In this document: in pieces, positions 15,941-64,000 of the stretch | Layout: every line of letters starts with the position of its first letter | Numbering within the stretch: the stretch's first letter is position 1 | Source of the DNA: Clostridiales bacterium UBA4698 | GTDB lineage: Bacteria > Bacillota > Clostridia > TANB77 > UBA1234 | DNA length: 64,000 bases | Assembly (NCBI GenBank): GCA_002404755.1 | Contig: DHKI01000007.1 | Location: 79-64,078, forward strand | Direction: 5' to 3' | Made by a program: the position numbers and the translations under genes | The notes under the pieces: generated by a model | What the model saw: only the letters and a program-made list of their open reading frames with translations | Databases searched by the model: none | What the model was told of the DNA's origin: nothing

Positions 15941-16064
15941 TAAAAATATTATAGGTATTCAAAATTTAGATAATCAAGAAAATCCGAAATTGATTGATGA
16001 AAAATAAGCATATAATGAATGCAAAAGATGTAGTTGAAAGCAATCATGGTAAGGAAGTGAAAAA

Positions 16065-16331
16065 ATGTTTAAATTGCATTCAAGTTTTGAGCCAACAGGC
16101 GACCAGCCACAGGCTATTGATAAATTAGTTGAAGGAATAAATAAGGGCGATAAATATCAAACGCTTTTAGGTGTTACAGGTTCAGGTAAAACATTTACCA
16201 TGGCGAATATTATTCAAAAGGTTCAAAAGCCAACACTTATATTAGCACATAATAAGACATTAGCCGGACAGTTGTATAGCGAGTTTAAAGAATTCTTCCC
16301 GGAGAATGCTGTTGAATATTTTGTATCTTAG
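16065..16331 (+). pseudogene. uvrB: Displaced 5' fragment of uvrB (88 codons)
   Basis: [28 protein letters not shown]...[13 protein letters not shown]...NAVEYFVS then stop. It is a paralogous, ~80% identical copy of the start of the full uvrB at 62232. Similarity ends abruptly after TATTTTGT (16317-16324). Confidence 0.85.
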
Positions 16332-16466
16332 TATTGTTATGTAAAAATATGGATACTGATTAGTGTTAAACAATACCTCTCAATACCTATTGATTTCAAG
16401 AAAAATTGAGGTTGAAGAAAAAATAACATCGTTTAAAATTACTTAAAATTCTTTAATATTATTTTT

Positions 16467-16500
16467 AATTTGTGACCTTGATTCGTTCCCATTCGTTCCC
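16467..16500. repeat. Left att arm: AATTTGTGACCTTG followed by two tandem ATTCGTTCCC motifs
   Basis: ATTCGTTCCC at 16481-16490 and 16491-16500. The 25-mer 16467-16491 matches 62101-62125 at 23/25 positions in direct orientation. Confidence 0.7.
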
Positions 16501-16528
16501 AAAGTTTTTTACAACTGAAAGGAGAAAA

Positions 16529-17164
16529 ATGGGGAATTTAATAATAAATATGTTATTAGTGTTTCAAATGATAATTGGAAGTACTAATATTGATATAGAG
16601 AACTTAACTTTTTATGAGCTGGGTTCTTTTTTTGATGTATCAAATTTATATATAACTGAAATAAATGATGGAATTGAATGTGTGTATGACCAAAATGAGT
16701 TAAGTTCAAAAGAAATTGTAGTAGAAATATTAAAAGAAGTACCCAAAGAATTGAAAATGGTAGTAAAACAGATTTGTATATATCAAGAATTAAATGGTAA
16801 TGTGGCAGGAGTTGCTAAAGATGAACAAATTGAATTATATAATTTGGAACAATATGATAAAGAAACTCAGAAATATATTGTTTATCACGAAATAGCACAT
16901 TTGTGGGGACGAAAATTGATGCAATATAAAGTGCTAGATTATCATTATACAGATTATTCAGAGGCAGTAAGAAAAGATAATAACTATATTTCAAGCTATT
17001 CAAAGAAATATATTATTGAAAAAAATAATTATTCTGAAGATTTTGCAGATAGTGTTGCAAAGTACTTAATTAGCAATAAAAAGCTATCTAAAAAGTATTC
17101 AAATAGACAAGCATATATTGAGCAAATGCTTGATATAAGCGAGGGTGGACTTGGTAAAACCTAA
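16529..17164 (+). CDS. Putative secreted zinc metalloprotease (HExxH), ATLF/PPEP-like
   Basis: Start at ATG 16529 after AAAGGAG. Hydrophobic N-terminus. HEIAH motif with downstream YSEDFADSVAKY (possible third ligand Glu). The family assignment is tentative. Confidence 0.5.
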   Translation: MGNLIINMLLVFQMIIGSTNIDIENLTFYELGSFFDVSNLYITEINDGIECVYDQNELSSKEIVVEILKEVPKELKMVVKQICIYQELNGNVAGVAKDEQIELYNLEQYDKETQKYIVYHEIAHLWGRKLMQYKVLDYHYTDYSEAVRKDNNYISSYSKKYIIEKNNYSEDFADSVAKYLISNKKLSKKYSNRQAYIEQMLDISEGGLGKT

Positions 17165-17221
17165 TGGTATATCATTAAAGTGTAAAAAGTACATTGAAAA
17201 CTTAATAAGGAGGGAGAGAGT

Positions 17222-28516: not shown

Positions 28517-28870
28517 ATGGAGGAAAATAGATATATAGAAGTATTGCTTAAGAAACCAAACCGACACCCCAAAAAAGTAACTATTGAAAATTCACTTGAA
28601 GCAATGCAAAGATTGGTTGGTGGAAATATTGAAGTAGTACAATTATATGATGCACTTCTTGTTTGTAATGAGGAGGGAAAGTTAAAAGGACTAGAGCCAA
28701 ATGTTGTTATTGGAGATGATACAATATGTGGTTCTTTTTTTATTGCAGGAGATGATTATGAAAATGCAGACTTTGTGAGTATTTCTAAAAAGCAATACAG
28801 AATGTTTGAAAATAAATTTTCAAGACAAAGACAGAAAATAAATGAAATGGAGGTTGAAGAAATGGAATGA
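28517..28870 (+). CDS. DUF3846-like protein
   Basis: KKVTIENSLEAMQRLVGGNIEVVQLYDALLVCNEEGKLKGLEPN resembles DUF3846, which is common next to ICE coupling proteins. Confidence 0.55.
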   Translation: MEENRYIEVLLKKPNRHPKKVTIENSLEAMQRLVGGNIEVVQLYDALLVCNEEGKLKGLEPNVVIGDDTICGSFFIAGDDYENADFVSISKKQYRMFENKFSRQRQKINEMEVEEME

Positions 28871-30735
28871 GAAAGAAACTAATAATATTTTTAATAATGT
28901 TAATAGTTACAATACCTATATGTGCATATATCTCAACAATAGTACATTTGAATTTAATAAAAGAATTTACGAGCATATCAGATATAAACAGTCAAACTGT
29001 AATACAAAGTATAGTTGGAAGTGAGAAACATCTTCAATTGTATATGTTATTACAGTTTTTATTTATGCTATTCATAGTGTTAATTGTTTTCGTAGAAACA
29101 ACTAATATTTTTGAAAGTAAATTAGGTAATGTAACAGATAAGATTAAAACTCCATTTATCGTAGGGCAAGGACAACACGGAACTGCGAGATGGTTAAAAG
29201 ATAATGAGTATGAAAAGGTTTTTGACAAAAATATTTTGTATGAAAAAGAGGCTGACCACATTGGTCAGGGCAAAAGTGTTGAAAAGATTAATTTTAAAGA
29301 TGGTGGATTAGTAGTTGGTTATAAAAAGAAAAAAGATAGTGAAGAAATTTATTACATAGGAGATAATACACATTCTTTAACTGTCGGAGCAACAAGAAGT
29401 GGAAAAACAAGAACTATTGTATTACAGACCATAGGAAATTTAGGACTAGCAGGAGAGAGTATGATTATAAGTGATCCAAAAGGAGAAATATATGATTATA
29501 CATCGAAATTTCTAGAAGATATAGGATATGAAACAATAGTAATAGATTTTAAAAATCCACAGAAAAGTAATAGATATAACTTTTTACAACCAGTAATAGA
29601 TGCAGTTAATAAGGAAGATTACAGAAAGGCAGAAGAATATGCGTGGGACATAACTTCAAGTTTAGTTGGTAACGAAGATAGCAGAATGGAAAGAATATGG
29701 AAAGATGGCGAAATGAGTATTATTGCAGGAGCTATAATGGCAGTTGTTTATGAAAATAAAGAACATCCAGAATTTCAAAATTTAACAAATGTGTATTCGT
29801 TTATTTCTGAAATGTGTAGAACAGAAGATGGGCAAATGCCAATTAATGAATACATAAATGACTTAGATGAAAATAATCCTGCAACTAGAATTTTTAATAT
29901 TGCTAGAATTGCACCAGAAAAAACTAGAGGTAGTTTTTTTACTTCGGCACTTACAACATTAAAATTGTTTACAAGTGAAAGCATATATGGAATGACATCT
30001 GATAGTGATTTTTCGTTAAAGGATACCAGTGAAAAGAAAAGGGCTATTTATATAATTCTTCCAGATGAAAGAGTAACTTATTATTCATTAGCCAGTTTGT
30101 TCGTAAACCAACAATACACTAATTTAGTTGAAGTTGCAGATGGCAGAGGTGGAGAACTGAAGAAAAGGACTAATTTTGTATTAGATGAGTTTGGAAATTT
30201 TACTACAATACCTGCATTTGCAAATATGCTTACTGTTGGTGGAGGCAGAAAAATTAGATTTAATATATTTCTACAATCGTTTGCACAATTAGAACAAAAA
30301 TATACAAGAGAGGGTGCAGAGAATATATTAGATAATTGTCAAACTTGGATTTATCTTAAAACTGCAAATATGGAAACTGCAACGAAAATTATGCGTAAAC
30401 TCGGAAATTATACAACTTCGAGTTATTCAAAAAGTAGTTCGTATAATAGACACCAAGCAGGTAGTAATTCTGAAAGTATGAATTTAATATCAAGACCTCT
30501 TTTAACTGAAGATGAAATATTAAGAATTGAAAGACCTTATGTACTTGTTATAAATGCAGGAAATTATCCTGCAATAACTAAAATTCCAGACCTCTCAAAA
30601 TGGAGATTTAATAAACTTTATGGACTTGGAGATAAAGAACATAATAGAGCAGTTCGCGAAGAAAGAGAAAATAGCAGAAAAGTAAGAGAACTAAAGAAAA
30701 TGCAGTTGTGGGGTGTGTGGAATGAATATAGATAA
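28867..30735 (+). CDS. Type IV coupling protein (VirD4/TraG family)
   Basis: Two N-terminal TM helices, Walker A GATRSGKTR and Walker B FVLDEFGN. 622 aa. Confidence 0.9.
   Translation: MRKKLIIFLIMLIVTIPICAYISTIVHLNLIKEFTSISDINSQTVIQSIVGSEKHLQLYMLLQFLFMLFIVLIVFVETTNIFESKLGNVTDKIKTPFIVGQGQHGTARWLKDNEYEKVFDKNILYEKEADHIGQGKSVEKINFKDGGLVVGYKKKKDSEEIYYIGDNTHSLTVGATRSGKTRTIVLQTIGNLGLAGESMIISDPKGEIYDYTSKFLEDIGYETIVIDFKNPQKSNRYNFLQPVIDAVNKEDYRKAEEYAWDITSSLVGNEDSRMERIWKDGEMSIIAGAIMAVVYENKEHPEFQNLTNVYSFISEMCRTEDGQMPINEYINDLDENNPATRIFNIARIAPEKTRGSFFTSALTTLKLFTSESIYGMTSDSDFSLKDTSEKKRAIYIILPDERVTYYSLASLFVNQQYTNLVEVADGRGGELKKRTNFVLDEFGNFTTIPAFANMLTVGGGRKIRFNIFLQSFAQLEQKYTREGAENILDNCQTWIYLKTANMETATKIMRKLGNYTTSSYSKSSSYNRHQAGSNSESMNLISRPLLTEDEILRIERPYVLVINAGNYPAITKIPDLSKWRFNKLYGLGDKEHNRAVREERENSRKVRELKKMQLWGVWNEYR
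29242..29270. repeat. 29-bp exact repeat, copy 2, inside the coupling-protein gene
   Basis: GAAAAAGAGGCTGACCACATTGGTCAGGG. Same codon phase as copy 1 (EKEADHIGQG). Peptide similarity continues (G-K/Y-SVEKI) using different codons. Confidence 0.9.
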
Positions 30736-42372: not shown

Positions 42373-42389
42373 AATGGAGGAAATGAGAT

Positions 42390-46654: not shown

Positions 46655-47506
46655 ATGAATGTAATAAAATCGTCAGAAATAATAAAGTACCAGTTTTATT
46701 CAATGCCTAAAGAATTATTTGCAGATAAATATAAAGATTTAAGTTTAGAAGCTAAAATGATATACACATTATTTATTGATAGATTAGAATTATCAAAGAA
46801 AAATAATTGGGTTAATGAAAATGGAGAAGTATATTTGATTTTTAAACGAAGTGAAATCGGTGGTAAATTAAACTTAACTGATAAAACAGTATCTAAAGCA
46901 ATAAAAGATTTAAAGAATTTTAATTTAATCTATGAACAAAGACAAGGATTGGGCAAAGCCAATTTGATATATATAGGAAAGTTAAATTTGGATAATCAAG
47001 ATACGGAAAAATCACCTTTCTTGAACGGTAAAATTTCCGATTCAAGACACGGAAAAAATCCGACTCAAGATACGGAAATTTTCCGACCAAGTAATACTAA
47101 TATAAATAATACTAATTTTAATGATACTGATGTCAGTCAGTCGGTAATAGATGAGGAGTTAGAAAGAATAAAGCAGAAGTGTGAATTGCACTTGCTAGAA
47201 GAAGTAGATAGCAGAGGTAATATAAACACAAAGTTGAGAGAAATAATAGAAAATGCAATCGAAATGATGTACTACTCATCATCTATAACTGTTGGTAATG
47301 CAGTAATACCACAGTATATCGTAAGAAGTAAAATGAAACAGTTAAATGGGGCAAAAATATTTTATGCGTTAGAAAAATTAAAAAATAATTTAAAAAACAC
47401 AGAAAATTTTTCAAATAGTTCAAAATATATAATAAGTTGCCTGTATAACGCAATAAATGAGTACTTTAGCGATGCAGAGATACAGTTTAGAATAGACACA
47501 AATTAA
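46655..47506 (+). CDS. Replication initiator, RepA_N family
   Basis: KYQFYSMPKELFADKYKDLSLEAKMIYTLFIDRLELSKKNNWVNENGEVYLIF is typical of the RepA_N N-terminal domain. Confidence 0.7.
   Translation: MNVIKSSEIIKYQFYSMPKELFADKYKDLSLEAKMIYTLFIDRLELSKKNNWVNENGEVYLIFKRSEIGGKLNLTDKTVSKAIKDLKNFNLIYEQRQGLGKANLIYIGKLNLDNQDTEKSPFLNGKISDSRHGKNPTQDTEIFRPSNTNINNTNFNDTDVSQSVIDEELERIKQKCELHLLEEVDSRGNINTKLREIIENAIEMMYYSSSITVGNAVIPQYIVRSKMKQLNGAKIFYALEKLKNNLKNTENFSNSSKYIISCLYNAINEYFSDAEIQFRIDTN
46996..47086. repeat. Four tandem ~22-bp iteron-like repeats inside the rep gene
   Basis: Units: TCAAGATACGGAAAAATCAC, CTTGAACGGTAAAATTTCCGA, TTCAAGACACGGAAAAAATCCGA and CTCAAGATACGGAAATTTTCCGA. The last contains the palindrome CGGAAA-T-TTTCCG. 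Confidence 0.6.
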
Positions 47507-50298: not shown

Positions 50299-50313
50299 GA
50301 TAAGGAGATAGAA

Positions 50314-51798
50314 ATGGGTATTGGAAATGTAATAAAAAGATTAAGAGATATAATGTGGAAAGATGATGGAGTCAATGGAGATGCACAAAGAATAGAGCAA
50401 ATTGTATGGATTTTATTTTTGAAAGTTTATGATGCACAAGAACAACAATGGGAACTAGATGAAGATAATTATGAGTCAATAATTCCAGAAGAATTAAGAT
50501 GGAGAAATTGGGCAGTAGATTTAAAAGACGGTAAAGCATTAACTTCTGAAGCTTTGTTAGATTTTGTAAATAATAAGTTGTTTCCAACCTTAAAGAAATT
50601 AGATGTAAATGAAGAAACACCAAAGAAAAAAGCAATAGTAAAATTTATATTTGAAGATATTAACAACTATATGAAAAATGGGATTTTGTTAAGACAAGTA
50701 ATTAATACTATTGACGAAATTGACTTTACAGACACAAATGAAAAACACGAATTTAATGAAATATATGAAACGATGTTAAAAGAATTGCAAAGTGCAGGTA
50801 GTGCAGGAGAATTCTATACACCAAGACCAGTAACAAACTTTATGGTTGAAATGGTTAGTCCAACTTTAGATGATAGAATTGCAGACTTTGCTTGTGGTAC
50901 AGGTGGTTTCTTAACTTCTGCTTTAGATTTCCTAGATAAACAAGTAGATAATTTAGAAGATAGAAAGAAATATAATAATTCTATATATGGAATTGAAAAG
51001 AAATCACTACCATACTTACTTTGCGTTACTAATATGCTATTTCATAATATTGAAGAGCCTAATATTGAACATAAAAATAGCTTAAGTAAGAATGTTAGAG
51101 ATTATTCCATTGATGAAAAATATGATGTTATAATAATGAATCCACCTTATGGTGGCTCTGAATTAAAAAATATTCAAGCTAATTTTCCAATGGAATTAAG
51201 AGGCTCTGAAACTGCTGATTTATTTATGACACTTATTTTATATCGTTTAAGAAATAATGGTAGAGTAGCAGTTATCTTACCAGATGGATTTTTATTTGGT
51301 ACAGATAATACAAAAACAAATATTAAAAAGAAAATATTAGAAGAATGTAATTTACATACAATAGTTAGAATGCCTAGTAGTGTATTTGCACCATATACTT
51401 CTATAACAACTAATATTCTTTTCTTTGATAAAACAAAGAAAACTGATGAGGTATGGTTTTATAGAATGGATATGCCAGAAGGATATAAGAATTTCTCAAA
51501 AACGAAACCTATAAAGAATGAACACTTTGATAAAGTAAGAGAATGGTGGAACAATAGAGTAGAAATCAAAGATGAAAAAGAAGATGAAAGTTCTACTGAA
51601 ACGTATAAATCTAAAAAATATACTGCTGAAGAAATTGTTAATTTGAATTATAACTTGGATTTGTGTGGTTATCCACATAAAGAAGAAATAATATTAGAGC
51701 CAAAAGAACTTATAAGCCAATATCAAGAAAAAAGAGCGAACTTAAATGCAGAGATTGATAAAATTTTAGATGAAATAAGTAAAATGTTGGAGGAATAA
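50314..51798 (+). CDS. hsdM: Type I R-M N6-adenine DNA methyltransferase subunit
   Basis: Motif I DFACGTGGFL and motif IV NPPYGG. Confidence 0.9.
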   Translation: MGIGNVIKRLRDIMWKDDGVNGDAQRIEQIVWILFLKVYDAQEQQWELDEDNYESIIPEELRWRNWAVDLKDGKALTSEALLDFVNNKLFPTLKKLDVNEETPKKKAIVKFIFEDINNYMKNGILLRQVINTIDEIDFTDTNEKHEFNEIYETMLKELQSAGSAGEFYTPRPVTNFMVEMVSPTLDDRIADFACGTGGFLTSALDFLDKQVDNLEDRKKYNNSIYGIEKKSLPYLLCVTNMLFHNIEEPNIEHKNSLSKNVRDYSIDEKYDVIIMNPPYGGSELKNIQANFPMELRGSETADLFMTLILYRLRNNGRVAVILPDGFLFGTDNTKTNIKKKILEECNLHTIVRMPSSVFAPYTSITTNILFFDKTKKTDEVWFYRMDMPEGYKNFSKTKPIKNEHFDKVREWWNNRVEIKDEKEDESSTETYKSKKYTAEEIVNLNYNLDLCGYPHKEEIILEPKELISQYQEKRANLNAEIDKILDEISKMLEE

Positions 51799-51799
51799 A

Positions 51800-53380
51800 A
51801 TGACTGCACAAGAATTAAAAAATTCTATTCTTCAACTAGCTATACAAGGCAAGTTAGTTCCACAAGATCCAAATGATGAACCTGCAACTGTGTTGCTAGA
51901 GAAGATAAAAGAAGAAAGAAATAAGTTAATAAAAGAAAAAAAGATAAAAAAAGAAAAATATTCTGAAATATATAAAGATGAAACCGATAATCATTATTAT
52001 GAGAAGTTTGAAGATGGGACCGTAAATGATATTACTGAAGAGATACCGTTTGATATACCTGATAATTGGAAATGGGTACATTTTGAAAATTTAGGATATT
52101 TCATTTCAGGTTATACCCCAAAAAGAGAAGAAATATCATCCAATGGTAATATACCATATTTTAAAGTTTCAGATATGAATACCAATGGTAATGAGATCTA
52201 TTTAATATATACAGATAATTATTTATGTACTAACAAGTATTATCCAAAAAACACTATTGTTTATCCTAAAAATGGCGGAGCTGTTTTTACTAACAAACGA
52301 AGAATATTAAAATATGATTCTGTCGTGGATTTGAATACAGGTGGTTTTTGTTGCTATAGTTTTGCTTATCTAAATTTTATGTTCTTATTATTCAGCAACA
52401 TTGATTTTAGACAATATTATAAAGGAACAGCATTGCCTACTTTGGATATGGATAAAATAAAAAGAATATATATTCCATTTCCACCACTTAATGAACAAGA
52501 GAGAATAAAAAATAAAATAGAAATACTAAATCCAATTATAAACTTATATGATTCAAAATATAATGAAATCGAAGCTTTAAATACCTCTTATAAAGAAGAA
52601 CTAAAGAAATCAATATTGCAATATGCTATTCAAGGAAAATTAGTAAAACGAGATCCTAATGATGAACCGGCAGAAGTTTTGATTAATAAAATTCTTGAAG
52701 AAAAAAGAGAGTTAATAAAAACAAAGCAAATTAAAAAAGAGAATTTGTCTGTAATATATAAAGATAGTACAGATAATCAATTTTATGAGAAGTTTGATGA
52801 TGATACGATTGTCAATATTACAGATGAAATTCCTTTTGATATACCAAGCAATTGGTGTTGGACAAAATTAAGAAATATCGGCGTATATAAAAAAGGTCCA
52901 TTTGGTAGTGCATTAACAAAAAGTATGTTTGTACCTAAATCTAATGAAACAATAAAAGTTTATGAACAAAAAAATGCAATTCAGAAAAACGCTACTTTAG
53001 GAGAATATTATATAACAAAAGATTATTTTGAAAGGAGTCTGACAGGATTTGAAATTTTTCCAAATGATATAATTGTTAGTTGTGCTGGTACAATTGGAGA
53101 GACTTATGTTATGCCTAATGAAATGGAAAGAGGAATAATAAATCAGGCATTAATGCGAATGAGAATATTAGAATTATTTCCTAAAGATTACTTTTTATTA
53201 TATTTTGATTATGTATTAAAAAAATCATCTGCCAAAAAAAGTAGTGGTTCCGCAATTAAAAATATTCCACCATTTGACATTTTCAAAGAATTCCTTGTAG
53301 CAGTACCACCAATAGCAGAGCAAAAACGTATTTTAGGAAAGTTGAATATAATGTTTAATATTATCAAAACAGCTGAATAA
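51800..53380 (+). CDS. hsdS: Type I R-M specificity subunit (expressed copy), arranged CR-TRD1-CR-TRD2
   Basis: Two variable target-recognition regions separated by duplicated conserved regions (LQxAIQGKLV..DPNDEPA...IPFDIP.NW.W). Start overlaps the hsdM stop. Confidence 0.9.
   Translation: MTAQELKNSILQLAIQGKLVPQDPNDEPATVLLEKIKEERNKLIKEKKIKKEKYSEIYKDETDNHYYEKFEDGTVNDITEEIPFDIPDNWKWVHFENLGYFISGYTPKREEISSNGNIPYFKVSDMNTNGNEIYLIYTDNYLCTNKYYPKNTIVYPKNGGAVFTNKRRILKYDSVVDLNTGGFCCYSFAYLNFMFLLFSNIDFRQYYKGTALPTLDMDKIKRIYIPFPPLNEQERIKNKIEILNPIINLYDSKYNEIEALNTSYKEELKKSILQYAIQGKLVKRDPNDEPAEVLINKILEEKRELIKTKQIKKENLSVIYKDSTDNQFYEKFDDDTIVNITDEIPFDIPSNWCWTKLRNIGVYKKGPFGSALTKSMFVPKSNETIKVYEQKNAIQKNATLGEYYITKDYFERSLTGFEIFPNDIIVSCAGTIGETYVMPNEMERGIINQALMRMRILELFPKDYFLLYFDYVLKKSSAKKSSGSAIKNIPPFDIFKEFLVAVPPIAEQKRILGKLNIMFNIIKTAE
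51983..52020. repeat. Inverted repeat IR1, left copy (38 bp, exact)
   Basis: ACCGATAATCATTATTATGAGAAGTTTGAAGATGGGAC is the exact reverse complement of 55624-55661. Confidence 0.9.
52651..52746. repeat. Inverted repeat IR2, left copy (96 bp, 2 mismatches)
   Basis: Reverse complement of 54871-54966, with mismatches at 52667 and 52706. Lies in the central conserved region of hsdS. Confidence 0.9.
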
Positions 53381-53395
53381 TCAGCTGTTTTTTGG

Positions 53396-54199
53396 CTACC
53401 AATCAATTATTTTATTTACTATTTCTTGCTGTTCGGTGCTAGTTCTTCTTAAATAAATTCTAGTAGTTTCTATACTTTCGTGTCCCATTAAATCAGCTAG
53501 TAACGAAATGTCATTGAATCTTTCTAAAAAGCTTTTAGCAAATCGATGTCTAAATGAATGAGGGTAAATCACGTTAGGATTTAATCCATATTTTTTCCCT
53601 AGTTTTTTTAGTTCTCCTGCAATTCCCCTTGCAGTAATTCTTTTTCCAAATTTGTTTTTAAATATGAACCCATCTGTAATTTCCTTTTCTTCAAACCATT
53701 TCAATGCTTCTTCTTGAAGTTTTTGTGGAATATATATTCTTCTTAATTTTCCACCTTTTGAATATAAATCAAAATATCCAATTTTCACATGTTCTACTTT
53801 GAATTGTATTAACTCGCTAATTCTAGCACCTGTTGCAGTAATAAATCTTATAACAAAATACCAGTACATTTCCTTCTCATTTTTCAAACATTTCTTAAAA
53901 TATTCATAATCAGCTTCGCTAATTACATTTTCTAAAAAATTTTTTTGTTGTAATTTTAAAAGCGGTAATCTCAATTTATCTTTTTTTAAATATTTTAAGT
54001 AAGAATTTATTGCTTGAATTCTTAAATTTACAGTTTTTATCTTATAATTTTCAACAAGAAATGTTTTATAAGCTTGTAAATTTTTCTTGTTTAAAATCAA
54101 ATATTTTGATTGGTATTGTTTAACTGCAAACAGATAAGATTTTATGGTATTTTGAGAAAGATTTTTCTTTTTTAAGTATTCTTCAAAAGAAAAAACCAT
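53396..54199 (-). CDS. Tyrosine site-specific recombinase (XerC/D-like) located between the hsdS copies
   Basis: ATGARISE (Arg), HSFRHRF (HxxR) and GHESIETTRIY (His...Tyr) catalytic signature. 267 aa. Confidence 0.85.
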   Translation of the reverse strand: MVFSFEEYLKKKNLSQNTIKSYLFAVKQYQSKYLILNKKNLQAYKTFLVENYKIKTVNLRIQAINSYLKYLKKDKLRLPLLKLQQKNFLENVISEADYEYFKKCLKNEKEMYWYFVIRFITATGARISELIQFKVEHVKIGYFDLYSKGGKLRRIYIPQKLQEEALKWFEEKEITDGFIFKNKFGKRITARGIAGELKKLGKKYGLNPNVIYPHSFRHRFAKSFLERFNDISLLADLMGHESIETTRIYLRRTSTEQQEIVNKIIDW

Positions 54200-54870
54200 A
54201 CTGAAAACCTCCTTTCCAGTATGGAATTATATAATATTATAGTTTATCAAATAAAATTTCTAATCTTTCTGTGATTTGTATTTGCTCATTAATAGGTGGA
54301 AGTGGAATTAATATATTCAAGACTGTATCAGAGCCTATATTACCTTGATTAGCAGTTCCTGTTTCTTTTGAAAAGACTTGATCCAATACAAATTTTGATT
54401 TTAATATCTTTATTAAAAAAGAAACCTCAATACTTTTATTGTTCCTAAAAGCACCTACCCTTTGATTAAGATATAAATTATAATTTACCAAATCATCTTC
54501 TTTAACAAGCTTCGAGAAAAAGTAATCTCTTTTATTTTTTGTGCCTGTCATCGTTATTAATATATCATTCATTTTTATTAAGTATTTTTCTGTTTCACTC
54601 GCTAAATCATCATTTATATATACAGGATTTGCTTCATACAAAATTTTATCATTTTTTACATTTCCCAAGCGTATAATTAAATTTGAGGATTTACTTATAT
54701 AAGTAGTACTTTTGTATGCATATCCACCTAATAGAGTACCTACATTTTTCAATCTAGTCCAACACCAACTATCTGGTATTTCAAAAGGAATTTCATCTGT
54801 AATATTGATAATCGTACCATCATCGAACTTCTCATAAAATTGATTATCAGCATCTTTATAGATGATAGAT

Positions 54871-54966
54871 AAATTCTCTTTTTTAATTTGCTTTGTTTTT
54901 ATTAACTCTCGTTTTTCTTCAAGAATTTTATTAATCAAAACTTCTGCCGATTCATCATTAGGATCT
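54871..54966. repeat. Inverted repeat IR2, right copy
   Basis: See 52651-52746. Confidence 0.9.
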
Positions 54967-55623
54967 TGTTTTACTAGCTTACCTTGTATTGCATATTGTA
55001 AAATAGATTTTTTTAACTCTTCTTTATAAGAAGAATTTAAAAATTCAATTTCATTATATTTTTTATGATATATATTTATAATAGATTCTAATGAATCAAT
55101 TTTGTTTTTTATACGATGTTGTTCTTTTAATGGTGGTAATGGAATTAAATATTTTTTAACATTATCTAGTTTAAGAAACATTTGATTAGTAGAACCTTCA
55201 GCACTTTTTTCTATTTGAAGTCTATTTAATTTTAAATAATATAATAAATAATAAGATATTACTTCATTTATGTTCCTAAAAACAAATAAGTGGCCATCTG
55301 TAATATATTTATTATCTTCTAAATTAAAGATTCCAGATCTTCCAACAGTACCACCACCAAGAGTATTTAATAGAACATCATTTTTCTTTAAATAAAATTC
55401 TTGTGGATAATTTGCACTAAAATCATCAGTGCAATATTTAATTCCGTTTAAATCAATTCCATAATCTTGATTATTTCTTTGACCTAACACCAAGTTATTA
55501 TTAAGCGCTTTTGAGTATTTAGGACTTTTCCCAGAAAATGCAAACAAACAAATATTTTCTAATCTTGCCCAACACCAATTACTTGGAATCTCAAAAGGAA
55601 TTTCATCCGTAATATCATTAATA

Positions 55624-55661
55624 GTCCCATCTTCAAACTTCTCATAATAATGATTATCGGT
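55624..55661. repeat. Inverted repeat IR1, right copy
   Basis: See 51983-52020. Confidence 0.9.
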
Positions 55662-55710
55662 GGTTAAATATAAAAAATACACGATTATTGAAATCGTGTA
55701 CTTACTTTTA

Positions 55711-55947
55711 TTAGTCAGCTTCAACATCCTTAAATAACGGATGAGTAAAGAACTCTCCGAGAGTGATTCCAAATCCCTCACAGATATGAATCAAAGTATC
55801 TAGTTTGATTAATGAAGTCTTTCCATTCATAAAGGTTGTAATTGTTGAACAAGGAACACCAGTTTCTTTGCACAAATCCCAGATTTTCCAACCTTTTTCT
55901 TTAAGTAAAATTGTAATTCTTTTTCTAATTGCTTCTGATAAATTCAT
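55711..55947 (-). CDS. XRE-family HTH transcriptional regulator
   Basis: 78 aa. LLKEKGWKIWDLCKETGVPCSTITTFMNGK is a classic Cro/C1-type HTH. Confidence 0.8.
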   Translation of the reverse strand: MNLSEAIRKRITILLKEKGWKIWDLCKETGVPCSTITTFMNGKTSLIKLDTLIHICEGFGITLGEFFTHPLFKDVEAD

Positions 55948-56774: not shown

Positions 56775-57497
56775 TTATAAGAGCTTTTGTGCCTTTGCTT
56801 TGTATAAAGCTACTGTTATTACATATTTAGGTGGTGGCTTTTTACCATCATAGTATGGATACCATTTCTTTATATCTGCTGTTTTTGAATAACGATACAT
56901 TGATTTAATTGCTTTTTCTATATTCCATTTAGCATTTCTAACAGTAGTATGATTTTTCTTTGCAATATCTTCGTAGATTTTATTTATAGAAAATGCATTA
57001 ATGTTATTTTTATATAGATACTCAACAGTATCAATTATATATGTTGTTCCTATATTGGCAAAGTTAAAACCTAGTTGTAGTACTGCGTTTTCACACACTT
57101 CTCTACAACTAGGTTTTTTGTTCGTTACTTTATATATATTGTGAATGCAGTCAAGTAGAGTAGGTAAATCAAAAGGTTTTTCAAAAACTCGGAAAACTTT
57201 TGAAGTATATCTGAACTTGAAGTCTGCTAGATTTCCAGAAATGACAATGATGTTGCATTTTTGAGAGTCAGTTCCGTTTTGAGTGCATAAGGTATCCAGA
57301 ACTTGAATTCCATTCTTGTTTGGCATTTTTAAATCTAAAATCATAACATCTGGAGCGTAATTAAGATAGGAGTTTATTGCACTTTCTCCATCGTTAGCAA
57401 TATTAACAACTTTAATCGCATTATCTTTTGTAAGGTAAGATGATACAAGAGTAGCTAACTCTAAATTATCATCAGCAATTAAAACTGATATTGACAT
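56775..57497 (-). CDS. Orphan response regulator with a Spo0A-like C-terminal DNA-binding domain
   Basis: Receiver domain (LIADDN...VMILDLKMP). C-terminal YEDIAKKNHTTVRNAKWNIEKAIKSMY and KPPPKYVITVALYKA parallel Spo0A_C ([42 protein letters not shown]). No adjacent kinase gene. Confidence 0.7.
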   Translation of the reverse strand: MSISVLIADDNLELATLVSSYLTKDNAIKVVNIANDGESAINSYLNYAPDVMILDLKMPNKNGIQVLDTLCTQNGTDSQKCNIIVISGNLADFKFRYTSKVFRVFEKPFDLPTLLDCIHNIYKVTNKKPSCREVCENAVLQLGFNFANIGTTYIIDTVEYLYKNNINAFSINKIYEDIAKKNHTTVRNAKWNIEKAIKSMYRYSKTADIKKWYPYYDGKKPPPKYVITVALYKAKAQKLL

Positions 57498-57914: not shown

Positions 57915-58352
57915 ATGTATATTAGTAAGGAAGAAAGAGAAGATTACGAAAGAAGATTTAATGGGTACATTATGCGAATAATAAAAAACGAGTATATTAG
58001 ATACTCTAAAAACAAAGCAAAAGAAAGAAGAGTTTCATCTTTGAATGAAATTTCTTGTGATGGTATTGAATGTATCCAAAACTTAATTGGAGAGAAAGAT
58101 GTATATATAGAAGAAGTTTTCGCCCCTGAAGAAATCGAATTGATATTTGAAAATGCATCTATTTATAGAGCCGTTAAATCGCTAACTAGAAAGGAAAAGT
58201 TAGCGATTTTTTTGTGCTTTATTTTAGAAATAGATAAAAGCGAAGTTGCTGAGATAATGGGATATTCGAGTGGACAATCTGTATATAAAACTTGTGAAAG
58301 AGCCATAGTGAAGATTAGAAAAAATTTAAAAGGGGGTTTTTTCAATGATTGA
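57915..58352 (+). CDS. Sigma-70-family-like protein (region 4 HTH), conjugative-transposon regulatory type
   Basis: LTRKEKLAIFLCFILEIDKSEVAEIMGYSSGQSVYKTCERAIVKIRKNL is a region 4-type HTH. Confidence 0.6.
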   Translation: MYISKEEREDYERRFNGYIMRIIKNEYIRYSKNKAKERRVSSLNEISCDGIECIQNLIGEKDVYIEEVFAPEEIELIFENASIYRAVKSLTRKEKLAIFLCFILEIDKSEVAEIMGYSSGQSVYKTCERAIVKIRKNLKGGFFND

Positions 58353-58521
58353 TTATAAAACTATTCAAAAAGCTAAAAATGGCGACAATGAAGCTATTGA
58401 AACTATTTTAAATCATTATGTGAAAAAGATTAAATCATTTTCTAAAGATGAGGAGTTCGTAAATATTTGCTTGGTTAGAGTGTTAGAGGGAATTGAAGGA
58501 TTTAAAAATAAAAAATATTAA
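58345..58521 (+). CDS. Small helix-turn-helix/sigma region 2-like protein (58 aa)
   Basis: MIDYKTIQKAKNGDNEAIETILNHYVKKI... resembles the conjugative-transposon HTH_16-type small regulators. ATG overlaps the previous gene. Below the ORF-track cutoff. Confidence 0.45.
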   Translation: MIDYKTIQKAKNGDNEAIETILNHYVKKIKSFSKDEEFVNICLVRVLEGIEGFKNKKY

Positions 58522-58559
58522 AAAAGTTGTCTAAAATTTTTACAAAGTTGACTCCTATA

Positions 58560-59116: not shown

Positions 59117-59275
59117 ATTCAAAAAAATAATTTTACGAAAAGAGCGAAAAATATGAATTACTTAAAATTTAAAATCGTCAAATGCTTGAAAAATAGCAGG
59201 GTGGACAGATTTGTTCTATTGAAAATATAATATTTAAAAGAAGATAGTCTGTCTTTTACCCAGAAAGGAGACAGA

Positions 59276-59464
59276 ATGTCTGAAGAAACAAAAATTGTTT
59301 ATGAAGTTATAGATATAATGAATATCTTAAATATAGGAAGAAATAAAGCTTACAATCTCGTGAAAAAAACTTATGAAGATAAAGCACCATTTGTTGTTAT
59401 AAAGATAGGACAAGAATATAAAATTCCTAAAGAAAGTTTTATGAAGTGGTTACAGGGTGGATAA
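59276..59464 (+). CDS. xis: Excisionase-type HTH protein
   Basis: 62 aa. ILNIGRNKAYNLVKK...IKIGQEYKIPKESFMKWL fits the MerR/excisionase HTH_17 pattern. Directly upstream of the integrases. Confidence 0.7.
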   Translation: MSEETKIVYEVIDIMNILNIGRNKAYNLVKKTYEDKAPFVVIKIGQEYKIPKESFMKWLQGG

Positions 59465-59489
59465 AAAGAAATGTCGGGAGTGATAGGAG

Positions 59490-60677
59490 ATGACAAATGA
59501 ATATAAAGGCGAAATTGCATATTTTTTGAAAAAAAGTTGGTATCATAACAAAAAGGAATTACAAGAAGATGGAACAATAAAATATGGTAGGGTTGGAGGT
59601 TTTAAGACTCCAGAGGAAGCAGAAAAAAGCTATTATGAGATGCAACAAGTTTTTGAGGAAAAAATGCGAAATCGTATAACTCCCACAATAAATAAAGAAA
59701 TAATGCTAAAAGATTACTTGATATATTGGTTTGAAAATATCTATTCTTCAAGAATAGAAAGCACAACTAAAATGCTTACTTCTTATACTTTATATAAAAT
59801 TATAATTCCTAATATTAAATATGATATAAAGTTAAGATTAATTACAACTGATTATTTGAATGAATTGCTAGAAGAATGTGCTAAATGTAGTAAATCGGCA
59901 GGAAATAAGTCAAGAGAAACATTGTTTTTAGCTTTTAAAGATGCAGTAAAAGATAAATATATAACAGTTAATTCGGTAATTACTACAAAACAATATAGAA
60001 GAGAAAAGTCAAATATAACAATATTAAAGAAAGAAGAGATTAAAAAGTTGCTTGATGCGACAAAAAATAGTAATTGGTATTTGGAAATTTTACTTGGATT
60101 GTTTTGTGGACTCCGTAAAGGCGAAATTTTAGGACTTAAATTTTCTGATTTTGATATTGAAAAAAGTACAGTAAGAATAAATAAGCAACTTGCTTTAGAA
60201 TATGAATTAGAACAAAAAGACTTTTTAATAAAGAATAGAGTTTTTAAAATTAAAGATCCAAAAACGGAAAATTCTTTTAGGACACTTAAAGTACCACAAA
60301 TAATAATTGATGAATTGATAAAAAGAAGAGAGAAAATAGAGGTATTGAAATCGAACAGAACAGATTTTATTGATAATGATTATATTAGCTGTCAAGAAGA
60401 TGGGTTACCACATCATCTTTCTTCTTTGAATAAATTTTTATCTAAAGTTTGTTCTAGAAATGGATTACCAAAAGCAACTGTACACGGATTAAGACATATG
60501 TATGCAACGATTTTGATAGAGCAGGGTGTTAGTATTGCAAAAATTTCTGCATTATTAGGACATAGTTCTATTCATACTACTTTTGATTTTTATTGTGATG
60601 TGATGTCAGAAAAAGAAAAAATGATTGCATATATGAATAATACATTTTGTATTAGTGAGGAGGAAGAACTAGAATGA
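59490..60677 (+). CDS. int: Tyrosine integrase 1 with an N-terminal arm-binding (AP2-like) domain
   Basis: GLRKGEILGL (Arg), HGLRHMYAT (HxxR) and LGHSSIHTTFDFY (His...Tyr). N-terminal GGFKTPEEAEKSYYEMQ. Confidence 0.85.
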   Translation: MTNEYKGEIAYFLKKSWYHNKKELQEDGTIKYGRVGGFKTPEEAEKSYYEMQQVFEEKMRNRITPTINKEIMLKDYLIYWFENIYSSRIESTTKMLTSYTLYKIIIPNIKYDIKLRLITTDYLNELLEECAKCSKSAGNKSRETLFLAFKDAVKDKYITVNSVITTKQYRREKSNITILKKEEIKKLLDATKNSNWYLEILLGLFCGLRKGEILGLKFSDFDIEKSTVRINKQLALEYELEQKDFLIKNRVFKIKDPKTENSFRTLKVPQIIIDELIKRREKIEVLKSNRTDFIDNDYISCQEDGLPHHLSSLNKFLSKVCSRNGLPKATVHGLRHMYATILIEQGVSIAKISALLGHSSIHTTFDFYCDVMSEKEKMIAYMNNTFCISEEEELE

Positions 60678-61972
60678 TTTGTTTAGATAAGAGTAACTAT
60701 ATTGATTTTAAAGTGTATGGTGTAACCACTATTAAGAAAAAGTATGGATTTAGAATAACTTTGATATATAGTGATGGGACTGATAAAACAATTCAAAAAT
60801 CTGGTTATAAAACCAAGAAAGAAGCTAATGCAGAAAGAGAAATAGCGATTGCAGAGTTACACAATAATACATTTGTTATTGAAAAAGCTTTAAGTACAAA
60901 AGAATTTTTTACATATTGGCTTGAAGATGAAATGAAACCAAGAATAACCTCGTGTTCGTATGATTCGTATAAAAATGTAGTTTATAACCATATAATACCT
61001 GCAATGGGAAGTATGAAAATCTCAAATATAACTCGTGGAGATATACAAAAGTTTCTAAATAAAAAAGTAGAATATTCACACAATATTGCCAAGCTATGTA
61101 AAACAGTTTTGAATACTGCCTTTAATTATGCAGTATCAAATAAACTTGTATCAGCCAATGTTGTTAATGATGTTGATTTATCAAAACAAGTAAAAGTAAA
61201 ACCATATAGGACAAGAGAGATAAATACTCAAAAAATACTTAATGAGGAACAAACAAAACTTTTAATTAAAGAAGCAAAATCAACACCTATTTATTTACAA
61301 GTATTATTTGCAGTTTTGATGGGATTAAGAAAACAAGAAATAAATGGACTAAAATATGAAGATATTGATTTTATACATAGAAAGTTAAAAGTTCAAAGAC
61401 AACTAGGAGTAAAACCAAATGAAGATAATCGTAATTTAAAAAAAGGGGAATATACCAAGCAGGAGATAAAAGTAAAAACCTATTCGAGTAATAGAGAATT
61501 ATATATTCCAGATATATTGTTTGAAGCAATATTAGAAGAAAGAGCAAAATACGAAAAAAATAGAAATAGAAGAATAAAGGATAAAACGAATCCATTTAGA
61601 GATTATGGTTTTATATGTTGTTCTACTTATGGAAATCCAAGAAGTAAATCGTTTCATTTTAAGTATTGGAAAGCTTTACTAAAAAAATGCAATTTGCCAG
61701 ATATAAGGTTTCACGATTTAAGAGCAACACATTGTACTTTACTTGTAAAAAAGAATTTCAATTTGAAAGCTATATCAAAATTAATGGGACACGCTTCTGA
61801 AATAATCTCAGTAGATGTTTATACAGATAAAGATGAGATTATAAATGATTGTGTTGAAGAAATAGAGGCTTTTATAAACGAAGTTATTCCACAAGAAGAT
61901 AATAATATAGAAGAAATTATATGCGATGAAGAATTAGAAATAATTAATAAATTTATAGAAGATGTTGTATAA
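60674..61972 (+). CDS. int: Tyrosine integrase 2 with an N-terminal arm-binding (AP2-like) domain
   Basis: GLRKQEINGL, HDLRATHCT and MGHASEIISVDVY. N-terminal SGYKTKKEANAEREIAIAEL. Its ATG overlaps the stop of integrase 1 (ATGA). Confidence 0.85.
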   Translation: MICLDKSNYIDFKVYGVTTIKKKYGFRITLIYSDGTDKTIQKSGYKTKKEANAEREIAIAELHNNTFVIEKALSTKEFFTYWLEDEMKPRITSCSYDSYKNVVYNHIIPAMGSMKISNITRGDIQKFLNKKVEYSHNIAKLCKTVLNTAFNYAVSNKLVSANVVNDVDLSKQVKVKPYRTREINTQKILNEEQTKLLIKEAKSTPIYLQVLFAVLMGLRKQEINGLKYEDIDFIHRKLKVQRQLGVKPNEDNRNLKKGEYTKQEIKVKTYSSNRELYIPDILFEAILEERAKYEKNRNRRIKDKTNPFRDYGFICCSTYGNPRSKSFHFKYWKALLKKCNLPDIRFHDLRATHCTLLVKKNFNLKAISKLMGHASEIISVDVYTDKDEIINDCVEEIEAFINEVIPQEDNNIEEIICDEELEIINKFIEDVV

Positions 61973-61978
61973 ATATTA

Positions 61979-62186
61979 GGGAACGAATTTTCATTAAAGA
62001 GGAGTTTTATAGCTTCTCTTGTTTTTATGCTTAAAAAGTGTTAAAATACACAATATAAAAGGACTTGATGTTAAGTAGTGTTAATTAGTTTGAAAAAATG
62101 AATTTGTGACTTTCATTCGTTCCCAAAGAAAAAAATGAATTTAATCAGACAAAATTTGATTCGTGGGAACGAATTTGGGAACGAAT
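61979..62186. repeat. Right att arm: four copies of the ATTCGTTCCC motif (one direct, three inverted)
   Basis: GGGAACGAAT at 61979-61988, 62165-62174 and 62177-62186. ATTCGTTCCC at 62115-62124, within the 25-mer AATTTGTGACTTTCATTCGTTCCCA (62101-62125). Confidence 0.7.
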
Positions 62187-62231
62187 TGATGGTTAGATGT
62201 AATCATAATAAATAGGTAAGGAAGTGAAAAA

Positions 62232-64000
62232 ATGTTCAAATTGCATTCTGAATATAAACCAACTGGCGACCAACCACAAGCAATAGAAAAGCTAGTTGAG
62301 GGTATTAATAAAGGCTTGAAACACCAGACTTTACTGGGTGTTACGGGAAGTGGTAAAACTTTTACAATGGCTAATGTAATAGCAAAAGTAAATAAACCTA
62401 CTCTGGTTTTAGCACATAATAAAACATTAGCTGGACAATTATATAGCGAGTTCAAGCAGATGTTCCCAGAGAATGCAGTGGAGTATTTTGTGTCATATTA
62501 CGATTATTATCAACCAGAAGCCTATATGCCACAAACTGACACATATATAGAAAAAGACTCGGCAGTAAATGATGAGATAGACAAGCTTCGTCACTCTGCA
62601 ACAGCTGCACTTTTTGAGAGAAAAGATGTTATTATTGTTGCCAGTGTTTCTTGTATTTATGGTTTAGGTGACCCCGAAGATTATAGTGGTCTTACACTTT
62701 CTTTAAGACCGGGTATGCAAATGGAAAGAGATGATTTGCTTAGAGCACTTATAGATAGGCAATATGATAGAAATGAGATTGAATTTAAACGTGGTAAGTT
62801 TAGAGTTAGAGGGGATACAGTTGAAGTGTATCCATCTAATGAAAATGAAAAGGCAATTAGAATTGAATTTTTTGGAGATGAAATAGAAAAGATTTCTGAA
62901 ATACAACCGCTTACGGGTCAAAAATTAGGAGTTAGAAATCATGTGCTTATCTTTCCAAACTCACATTATGCAACATCTAAAGAAAAAATGGAAAAGGCAA
63001 TTGGCACAATTGAAATTGAGTTAGAGCAAAGAATTAAAGAATTTAAAGAAGAAGGAAAACTAATTGAGGCACAAAGAATAGAACAACGAACAAATTTTGA
63101 CATCGAGATGATGCGTGAAACAGGCTTTTGCCAAGGAATAGAAAACTATTCAAGACATATAAGTGGAAGAGAGCCAGGAAGTGCACCATACACACTTATG
63201 GATTATTTTCCAAAAGATTTTCTTTTGCTTATAGATGAATCACATGTTACAATTCCTCAAGTTAGAGCAATGTATAATGGAGATAGAGCTCGTAAAGAAA
63301 GTCTAGTTAATTATGGTTTTAGATTGCCCTCTGCTTACGATAACAGACCATTAAAATTTGAAGAATGGGAAGAAAGAATAAATCAAGTAATCTTTGTTAG
63401 TGCAACACCAGCAGATTATGAAAAGGCACACTCACAAAACACAGTAGAGCAAATCATAAGACCAACAGGACTTTTAGATCCTAAAATAGAAGTTAGACCA
63501 TCTGAAAATCAAGTTGATGATTTGATTGGAAGAATAAATGAAACAGTCGAAAAAGGTGAAAGAGTACTTGTTACTACACTTACAAAGAAAATGGCAGAAG
63601 ACCTAACAGCATATTTAAAAGAACTAAATATAAAAGTAACCTACATGCATTCAGATATTGACACACTAGAGAGACTAAAAATATTAAAAGAATTAAGAAT
63701 GGGTAAATATGATGTATTAGTTGGAATTAACCTATTAAGAGAAGGGCTAGATTTGCCAGAGGTTTCACTAGTTGCAATATTAGATGCAGACAAAGAGGGC
63801 TTTTTAAGATCTGAACGCTCGCTAATTCAAACAACAGGGCGTGCAGCAAGAAATTCAGAGGGAAAAGTTATAATGTATGCTGATGAATTAACAGATTCTA
63901 TGGAAAAAGCAATAAAAGAAACAAATAGAAGAAGAAAAATTCAAATGGCTTATAACGAAGAGCATGGAATAATTCCGCAAACTATTCATAAAGCAATAAG
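62232..64000 (+). CDS. uvrB: Excinuclease ABC subunit B (3' end beyond the window)
   Basis: [28 protein letters not shown]...[13 protein letters not shown]...[10 protein letters not shown]... The ORF stays open to the window end. Helicase motifs and the beta-hairpin region are present. Confidence 0.95.

Follow-up and report, generated by a model that had tools for sequence, protein, structure and literature searches.

Two uvrB 5' ends flank a conjugative element

The DNA analysed here is a 64-kb stretch of Clostridiales bacterium UBA4698 (contig DHKI01000007.1; 64,000 nucleotides in full, hereafter the window), in which the 5' end of the repair gene uvrB occurs twice, on either side of what is by its gene set (integrases, relaxase, coupling protein and VirB4-type ATPase) a complete integrative and conjugative element (ICE). 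A repeat search of the window returned a direct repeat of 293 nt, at 16048-16340 (+) and 62215-62507 (+), whose copies are 75% identical in ungapped alignment and spaced by 46,167 bp. The repeat is not due to chance: both copies are in frame and both encode the conserved UvrB N-terminus. Conjugation, integration and cargo genes lie between the copies, with the integrases beside the right one, and the Pfam and NCBIfam scans of the window's open reading frames (ORFs), from which all domain assignments below are taken, agree on this with the first-pass annotation of the window. The features at the two junctions are as follows.

16048-16340 (+): left repeat copy, attL region; host-native uvrB ribosome-binding site (RBS) and first 86-88 codons
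16065-16331 (+): truncated uvrB stub of 88 codons, UvrB N-terminus; TAG from the left end of the element (GTA TCT TAG)
16317-16324 (+): core TATTTTGT in attL; putative crossover/overlap, uvrB codons 85-87
16325-62483 (+): ICE body; 46,159 bp between core copies, 46,167 bp with one core; low-GC Clostridia
62215-62507 (+): right repeat copy, attR region; element-borne RBS and first ~86 codons, fused to host uvrB
62232-64000 (+): chimeric uvrB; codons 1 to ~86 element-derived, remainder host-derived; cut at the window end
62484-62491 (+): core TATTTTGT in attR

The first-pass annotation had described an 88-codon uvrB start closed by a stop at 16065-16331 and a second, full-length uvrB from 62232. 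Both are present: the first encodes the UvrB N-terminus, and its identical 88-residue product has been called on 13 contigs from several samples; the second has a product of 649 residues in the source contig (P0001). The identity of the two segments had been put at about 80% by eye, which was too high; computed values are ~75% over 293 nt and 73.5% over the 88 codons. The encoded segments are 86.4% identical, with 12 of 88 residues different, and the proportion of differing sites is 0.87 for synonymous positions (pS), which are thus saturated, and 0.11 for nonsynonymous positions (pN). A 22/22 match over the RBS and ATG, GGTAAGGAAGTGAAAAAATGTT, stands where it had been reported (16048-16069 and 62215-62236), and the similarity 5' of it is patchy and gapped. 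At the other end the similarity of the copies stops just past TATTTTGT (16317-16324; 62484-62491), as sharply as had been claimed.

The left copy is the host's original 5' end

Two sets of sequences were compared with the copies, species-representative relatives (L001-L080, one genome per species) and same-species sequences from a large protein collection. Typing against the representatives was undecided, both copies being ~75% identical to all of them. In the same-species set, a left-type N-terminus (at most 2 mismatches) is found on 46 of the 49 full-length UvrB variants with the body of the window species; one of the remaining three is the window's own protein, of the right type, and two are of other types. 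The most widely sampled same-species UvrB proteins match the left stub at 88 of 88 residues (for example P0011, on 56 contigs).

Three same-species contigs (L081-L083) lack the element, and their attB can be rebuilt from the two flanks of the window. Over uvrB nt 1-262 they are 95.0% identical to the left copy (249/262) and 72.5% identical to the right copy (190/262), and over nt 263-1767 they match the window's uvrB at ~1444/1505 positions (95.9%). The genes of the window's left flank are those upstream of the empty sites, at 93-95% identity. Because the left copy matches the empty sites and the flanking genes match as well, the left stub is the host's original 5' end, left behind as the first-pass annotation had suggested; the comparison with empty sites that it called for gave the left type in every contig. 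Most same-species contigs are empty, and presence of the element is thus polymorphic.

The left stub is not identical to the other hosts throughout. Its first 236 nt hold 7 differences from them, with the base of the right copy at 6 of the 7, and a further group at 16296-16316 (against L081-L083 and L088-L092) is entirely synonymous; patchy gene conversion or recombination between lineages may account for these differences. Directly 5' of the stub, a 1.4-kb segment (14627-16051) that contains a KilA-N gene (15155-15940) takes the place of the native uvrB upstream region. This segment is absent from L082 and L083, a different gene occupies the place in L081, and L089 and L093 are arranged like the window.

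The right copy travels with the element

Three contigs from another species (L084-L086) carry the same module of an excisionase-like protein (Xis) and two tyrosine recombinases (Int1 and Int2) directly 5' of uvrB. Between the window and L084, the right end of the element is identical at 5266 of 5438 nt (96.8%) and uvrB nt 1-235 at 227 of 235 (96.6%), as against 1204 of 1497 (80.4%) for uvrB nt 263-1767. A right end 96.8% identical in a host with a uvrB body of 80.4% identity is indirect evidence for possible conjugative self-transfer of the element. In a further contig, L097, uvrB nt 1-235 are 95.7% identical to the window and the uvrB body only ~80%. Among proteins, the exact right-type 88 residues stand on UvrB bodies of other species in P0052 and P0053 (88/88), and with 2 mismatches in P0050. 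Right-type 5' ends on the bodies of other species, behind the same integrases, bear out the proposal that the element carries its own first ~86 codons. When copies of these element-borne codons in different elements are compared, pS is 0.13-0.24 and pN 0-0.01; pN far below pS indicates purifying selection on the fragment, which would fit its translation within UvrB.

Two loci depart from the usual arrangement. L097 (9497-11692) pairs a species-B-like uvrB of right-type 5' end with the final ~240 bp of the element, among them GGGAACGAA repeats; integrases are absent upstream, and a gene for a 1758-residue SLH protein stops 11 bp before the similarity begins. This contig looks like a fixed remnant of the element. 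In L100 and L101 (6453-12591) the order is an Int2 homologue, an 88-codon right-type stub, a 2.5-kb insert with DUF1016_N and YhcG_C domains and two small ORFs, and then a uvrB annotated as lacking its 5' end (606 residues), which may reflect a second insertion into the element-borne 5' end or a decayed tandem.

The sequence switches at a conserved core in uvrB

In four independent comparisons the switch in identity falls at TATTTTGT, in codons 85-87 (E-Y-F-V); at attL of the window, of L088 and of L090-L092, host-like sequence gives way to element-like sequence there. Integrase pairs 50-55% identical to Int1 and Int2 lie directly 5' of uvrB in L006, L057 (Dorea), L063 (Limivivens) and L071. 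When L006 is aligned with its close relative L005, in which an integrase was not detected within 10 kb upstream, identity is 80.3% before codon 88 and 93.5% after it, with the change at TATTTTGT; L071 and L068 show the opposite, 95.1% before and 75.7% after, and switch at the same TATTTTGT. The core, which has no visible dyad symmetry, encodes Y-F-V of the invariant E-Y-F-V-S-Y-Y motif, and the motif is identical in all 66 translated uvrB loci. The motif segment precedes the beta-hairpin tyrosines of UvrB.

Junctions in other samples map to the predicted core as well. At attL of L088 and L090-L092, a host 5' end running to GAGTATTTTGT is joined to ATCTTAGTATTG, that is, TATTTTGT is followed by ATCTTAG. 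A 1236-bp Logan contig (L099, SRR22923251) joins the right end of an element to a left end across the core: its nt 1-424 match window positions 62068-62491 at 412 of 424 nt (97.2%), its nt 425-1236 match 16325-17137 at 666 of 808 (82.4%), and at the join GCAGTTGAATATTTTGT is followed by ATCATAGTATTGTTATACC, that is, GAATATTTTGT by ATCATAG. The sequence shared at this join is far shorter than the assembler's k-mer, and so a chimeric assembly is unlikely. Judged by these alignments, L099 is the attP-type junction of a close relative, from either a circle or a tandem array. For the element of the window, the predicted attP would run from CAGATGTTCCC to TATTTTGT and on into ATCTTAGTATTG, and the predicted attB from the host 5' end through TATTTTGT into GTCATATTACG. 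No predicted attP junction was found in JGI metagenome contigs with a search pattern that demanded GTATCTTAG, where L099 reads GTATCATAG. As a possible excision scar we considered GTATCTTAT, which follows the core in L081, and dropped it because the same bases occur in the native-type 5' end of L095, from a related species.

Integration into uvrB and competing explanations

We conclude with considerable confidence that a ~46.2-kb ICE was inserted in uvrB by site-specific recombination through a tyrosine recombinase and that it replaced the 5' end of the gene. Empty sites, junctions and the travelling right copy all support the reading put forward in the first-pass annotation: integration at about codon 86, a replacement 5' end, and the host's own 5' end kept as a stub. 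The attP of the element would hold a cassette, immediately 5' of the core, that consists of a copy of the uvrB upstream region with an extended -10, the RBS and codons 1 to ~86. On integration, the cassette is joined at attR to host codons ~87-649 to give an intact chimeric uvrB with a new upstream region. At attL the host promoter region and 86 codons run into V-S and the TAG of the element, which leaves the 88-codon stub. Int2 is most likely the recombinase, with Xis and probably with Int1, and GGGAACGAA repeats would serve as arm sites on both arms; we favour Int2 as the main recombinase because of its arm-binding domain and its constant position beside the cassette.

Several observations weigh against this reading. 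L084 already reads host-like over the 27 nt that precede the core (nt 236-262; 21 of 27 identical), and on these comparisons the crossover is placed at TATTTTGT or within the 27 nt 5' of it. Over the final 20 nt of the window's left copy, 5 positions depart from the other hosts. A consensus promoter scan did not call the captured upstream segment at 62005-62048, which has a weak -35. The attP-type junction of L099 belongs to a relative (97% identical at the right end, 82% at the left), its 1.2-kb contig does not separate a circle from a tandem array, and the excised form of this exact element was not found. Decayed forms also exist: in L097 all that is left of the element is its final ~240 bp and the right-type 5' end, without integrases, and L100 and L101 have an Int2 homologue (80% amino-acid identity) without Int1.

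The decayed forms lend themselves to another explanation, namely that the element is a fixed, immobile island whose replaced 5' end is a fossil and whose repeats no longer act as att sites. Besides the remnant without integrases in L097 and the decayed or nested arrangement of L100 and L101, the failure to find a circular form of the exact element is consistent with this view. The signature genes, however, are all intact ORFs; the left stub has 0 of 88 residues changed from the N-terminus most widely sampled in the species, which points to a recent insertion; and presence is polymorphic, most same-species contigs being empty. Together with a right end of 96.8% identity beside a uvrB body of only 80% in another host, and with the attP-type junction of a relative, this makes an immobile island unlikely.

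Integration might instead inactivate or silence uvrB, as SpyCI does in mutL, so that nucleotide excision repair would return only on excision. The upstream region is indeed replaced, the promoter-like segment stands ~140 nt away from the RBS with three of the four right-end repeats in between, 12 of the 88 residues are changed, and there is the SpyCI/mutL precedent as mentioned in PMC4701971. The chimeric gene is nevertheless a full-length ORF with Walker A (GSGKT) and all invariant N-terminal residues, and in its RBS and extended -10 it retains homology to the native signals. Moreover, pN of 0-0.01 against pS of 0.13-0.24 in the element-borne codons is unexpected for an unused fragment. Silencing is accordingly quite improbable, and uvrB apparently stays functional in carriers as a hybrid UvrB.

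The first-pass annotation had also considered the 22-bp identity as the crossover site, the left fragment then being an element-borne relic; the right-hand gene would in that case be wholly that of the host. A run of 22/22 is conspicuous against a background of 75%; by a rough estimate, 0.1-0.3 such runs are expected by chance in 290 nt. In the empty sites, however, the left-type 5' end is contiguous with the host body, and right-type 5' ends occur on the bodies of other species behind the same integrases; these two findings effectively exclude the alternative, to which we give hardly any weight. Most host strains, furthermore, share 19 of the 22 nt of GGTAAGGAAGTGAAAAAATGTT and yet carry the same element joined at TATTTTGT, and by this comparison the 22-bp identity is part of shared uvrB ancestry, not a crossover site.

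That homologous recombination, gene conversion or an error of assembly produced the two 5' ends is scarcely credible. Reciprocal chimeras of N-terminus and body without a nearby integrase do exist (P0049 in L095 and P0054 in L096, each on a single short contig), and of the 12 sites at which the window's left copy departs from other hosts, 7 resemble the right copy. Against this, identity between the copies is only 75% and their synonymous sites are saturated; 13 contigs from several samples contain the same junction, each by independent assembly; distant pairs of element and host switch at an identical point; and integrases, Xis and end-specific repeats are all present. Of the two chimeras, L095 has the native-type N-terminus of a sister species on a UvrB body of the window species, with an IS200-like Y1 transposase upstream, and L096 has the reverse; each may be a recombinant or an assembly chimera.

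Putative attachment-site arms and the captured upstream region

Site-specific integration through a tyrosine recombinase, as preferred above, draws attention to the sequences just inside the ends of the element.

16482-16500 (-): two GGGAACGAA in tandem (at 16482 and 16492), ~160 bp in from the left end; putative arm-type integrase sites, P' arm
61979-62185 (both strands): four GGGAACGAA (61979+, 62116-, 62165+, 62177+); putative arm-type sites (P arm)
62005-62048 (+): uvrB upstream segment captured by the element, extended -10 TGTTAAAAT; putative promoter of the restored uvrB

GGGAACGAA has 6 exact copies in 64 kb, all at the ends of the element, where 0.11 would be expected by chance. The left-end copies are kept in L088-L093 and L099 and the right-end copies in L084, L097 and L099, and we infer from this distribution that they are probably arm-type integrase sites. 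The segment at 62005-62048 is identical at 38 of 43 positions to -95 to -53 upstream of the native uvrB in L083. Between it and the RBS lie ~140 nt that include three of the four right-end GGGAACGAA, and a terminator-like hairpin (61997-62020), 3' of int2, overlaps its start. The first-pass annotation had credited the element with its own promoter and RBS. The RBS is there; for the promoter, the homology to the host's uvrB upstream region is the evidence, and the segment is best called a putative promoter. No LexA box was seen by eye upstream of the native or the element-borne uvrB in the window species; GAAC-N4-GTTC boxes occur upstream of uvrB in other Clostridia loci (L042, L075).

Some further motifs lie close to these sites. 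A direct repeat, GTCCCTGTTTGT, occurs twice at ~5895-5925 of L083, just 5' of the segment captured by the element. AGTCACAAATGGAGG is present in the element-borne copies of L071 and L068, and its reverse complement TTGTGAC flanks GGGAACGAA in the window (16466, 62103). L007, L008, L028 and L032 share a motif, GGTCACAA(A)GGAGGAAA, immediately before the uvrB start (25 nt upstream). The GGTCACAAAGGAGG motif of these four loci might point to further elements; none of 7 upstream ORFs tested in L007 and L028 is an integrase.

The layout of the left end allows a further, speculative proposal, that the uvrB site, beyond offering a safe harbour, lets the element tap host regulation and provides a way to exchange alleles of a core gene. 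In the interval that separates the stub from the first element gene, no terminator-like site was detected, and read-through from the host uvrB promoter into the ICE may therefore be possible. In the integrated state, that promoter would read through the stub into a ~37-kb same-strand array of ICE genes, whose expression could then track the host's regulation of uvrB, that is, its response to DNA damage; after circularisation, it is the captured uvrB promoter and the int operon that would be directed towards this array. If this were true, host UvrB would depend on an element-borne promoter with a 5' leader that carries integrase/Xis repeats, and once the element had decayed, as in L097, a core repair gene would permanently be left with a foreign promoter and N-terminal ATPase segment, across species. 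We regard the proposal as doubtful.

Paired integrases

The recombination genes occupy the right end of the element.

59276-59464 (+): excisionase-like HTH_17 protein (Xis), 62 residues; PF12728 (4e-7), TIGR01764 weak
59490-60677 (+): Int1, tyrosine recombinase, 395 residues; PF00589
60674-61972 (+): Int2, heterobivalent-type tyrosine integrase, 432 residues; PF14657 (arm-binding), PF14659, PF22022, PF00589

int2 overlaps int1 by 4 nt and adjoins attR. The two proteins are paralogues with 28% identity over 358 residues, and the catalytic R, H-x-x-R, H and Y can be read in both (Int1 GLRKGE...HGLRH...GHSS...FDFY; Int2 GLRKQE...HDLRA...GHAS...VDVY). Int1 aligns at 28% identity with the PF14657 arm-binding region of Int2 and has no Pfam match of its own there. 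The pair occurs together in L006, L057, L063, L071, L084 and L098, and all related loci seen have an Int2 homologue directly 5' of uvrB or a uvrB stub. Int1 is 99.7% and Int2 91.7% identical in amino acids to the proteins of the L084 element; against L098 the order is reversed, with 94.1% and 97.5%. This reversal indicates that the recombination module is mosaic.

Gene content of the element

From 16472 to 53380 almost all genes lie on the + strand, and all signature genes of the ICE are intact ORFs. The remaining features are listed in order.

16529-17164 (+): first element gene, 211 residues; beside the stub in L087-L092
17222-23626 (+): ArdC-N/SNF2-helicase protein, 2134 residues; PF08401, PF00176, PF04851, PF00271
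26357-27253 (+): ParB-like protein; PF02195
27593-28504 (+): relaxase of MobA/VirD2 type (MOBP-like); PF03432 (1e-34), NCBIfam relaxase matches weak and below cut-off
28867-30735 (+): type IV coupling protein (VirD4/TraG type); PF02534 (2e-65), PF12696
31112-31963 (+): TrbL_4/VirB6-like channel protein; PF19597 (5e-89)
35446-37281 (+): VirB4-like conjugation ATPase; PF19044, PF12846, PF03135
37798-38523 (+): M23 peptidase, cell-wall hydrolase of the transfer apparatus; domain scan
41644-46346 (+): sortase and 1318-residue SpaA/thioester-domain surface adhesin; domain scan, internal repeats D4-D9
46655-47506 (+): RepA_N/DUF6017 replication initiator-like protein; domain scan
47989-55781 (both strands): type I restriction-modification cargo; hsdR, hsdM, hsdS and a second, inverted hsdS, with a small tyrosine recombinase between
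56775-57497 (-): Spo0A-like response regulator
57915-58352 (+): sigma-70-like protein, 145 residues; sigma-70 family matches below cut-off
58345-58521 (+): HTH_16-type protein, 58 residues; PF12645 on record for the L084 homologue

The product of the first gene had no Pfam or NCBIfam match and is 71-100% identical in amino acids across the other attL and attP contigs. The sigma-like and HTH_16 genes (57915-58521) form a regulatory pair 5' of xis and int. In the restriction-modification cargo, the two hsdS genes are oppositely oriented and contain inverted repeats (I1-I6, 110-315 nt, 72-87% complementarity; 51810-52881 and 54739-55661), with a 267-residue tyrosine recombinase (53396-54199, -) between them. 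The hsdS pair and this recombinase (51800-55781) have the layout of a phase-variable, shuffling specificity locus.

uvrB stubs are widespread

A search with the right-type 88 residues listed 120 short UvrB N-terminal fragments, of which 43 end exactly at ...EYF(V)S and a stop and have very different N-terminal sequences. Some of these stubs are on long contigs: P0148 was found on 62 contigs, and P0181 on 19 of up to 307 kb, where a ParB/ParA/RepA_N-DUF6017 element comes next and the host context is unrelated. About 17 of the listed fragments continue as native sequence and are probably truncated by contig ends. Others share recurrent tails, namely YYENT[LS], YCF, YYGSTL, YYRNTL, YYDVST and YYDYYRK, and the pattern suggests that there are several further element families, with crossover points close by in this uvrB motif. 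In many of the stubs P0124-P0240, divergence sets in 1-6 codons past EYFVS, with the continuations YYENTLNPVIFSVV, YCF, YYGSTLKTV.FSTVKC, YYRNTLK.LLFQ, YYDVSTFP.LFSVI, YNDYQQK and YYDYYRK.

In many gut Clostridia, related elements apparently exchange the uvrB 5' end in the same manner. The Int2/attP pair would recognise a site that is found in uvrB of many Firmicutes, and a target within the invariant E-Y-F-V-S-Y-Y implies a very broad potential host range for the element family. uvrB stubs and 'paralogous' 5' ends can be read as markers of such elements and not of gene decay. The promoter region and first 86 codons of a core repair gene, including Walker A, appear to be replaceable, which yields natural inter-species hybrids of UvrB, and part of a core gene is exchanged horizontally via site-specific recombination.

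Host sequences outside the element

Elsewhere in the window, an intergenic repeat of ~72 nt lies upstream of four host genes (260-331, 4923-4994, 12185-12256 and 13037-13108), with further coordinates at 330-371, 10172-10213 and 12249-12290. It has a GGAGC...GCTCC hairpin followed by ATAAAAACTAATTG.TAGCAGTACAC, and occurs near an ECF sigma/anti-sigma pair (10346-11966). The only recognised T-box is at 3-185.

Comparison with known systems

In target geometry the nearest parallels come from streptococci, where certain ICEs enter ftsK, rbgA or ebfC at the 5' end and preserve the product (Ambroset et al. 2016, PMC4701971); these ICEs have repeats of 12-54 bp and leave the N-terminus unchanged, and the upstream or promoter region is sometimes replaced. 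The uvrB element resembles them in that a tyrosine integrase uses the conserved 5' end of a housekeeping gene and the element restores the ORF. It differs in its repeat of 293 nt at 75% identity, which covers 86 codons and changes 12 of 88 residues, and also in its target, in the captured promoter region and in the two paralogous integrases. uvrB is not among the 18 integration targets in that study. Elements that integrate at 3' ends with a replacement 3' end of their own, such as ICESt3 in fda and those that target rplL, rpsI and guaA (PMC4701971), likewise hold in attP a copy of the displaced gene part, and the gene stays intact. The geometry here is the mirror image: the displaced part comprises promoter, RBS, start codon and the Walker A ATPase motif, so that expression signals and protein sequence are both exchanged and not a terminal tail alone. 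SpyCI, cited in PMC4701971 as lying in the 5' end of mutL and interrupting its expression until excision, is similarly a mobile element in the 5' end of a DNA-repair gene; it differs from the present element, which supplies a full replacement 5' end under purifying selection.

In its transfer module the element matches the domain definition of the ConjTn5252/Tn1549 superfamily (Rel-II PF03432, CP-IIa PF02534 and PF12696, VirB4 PF12846; PMC4701971, Table 2), with PF03432 (MOBP), PF02534 plus PF12696, and PF12846. The members described in PMC4701971 rely on one integrase, with rbgA, rplL or rumA as the target, or on a triplet of serine recombinases. By domain content the module of the window fits Tn5252/Tn1549 and not Tn916. 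A large SNF2/ArdC protein, an M23 hydrolase, a sortase with adhesin and RepA_N are typical of Tn5252/Tn1549 elements. The Tn916 module consists of the sigma-like orf7, orf8, xis and int, with expression coupled to circularisation. The right end of the uvrB element resembles it in the order sigma-like protein, small HTH_16 protein, HTH_17 excisionase and arm-binding integrase, as does the single-strand arrangement of transfer genes that start from the opposite end. Tn916 has a MOBT Rep_trans relaxase, FtsK/TcpA-type coupling and low-specificity integration, whereas the present element has a PF03432 relaxase, a VirD4-type coupling protein, one site in many hosts and a second integrase.

Paired tyrosine recombinases are also known from Tn554, as TnpA and TnpB. 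As in XerC/XerD and Tn554, two paralogous recombinases stand side by side and apparently are both catalytically complete; unlike in those systems, both are long lambda-Int-like proteins and Int2 has an arm-binding domain. L100 and L101 keep the Int2 homologue alone. Our literature search on paired tyrosine integrases in ICEs turned up only Xer systems and notes on actinophages. Within the collection of papers searched, it also yielded no description of uvrB as a target of ICEs or islands, which is absence of evidence only; one GBS (group B Streptococcus) paper sets an ICE 'between uvrB and secA', with no further detail at that mention. The uvrB target, the swap of 86 diverged codons and the wide spread of uvrB stubs thus appear to be undescribed. 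Restoration of a gene after integration in its 5' end is a known principle, and the element in uvrB is an extension of that mechanism.

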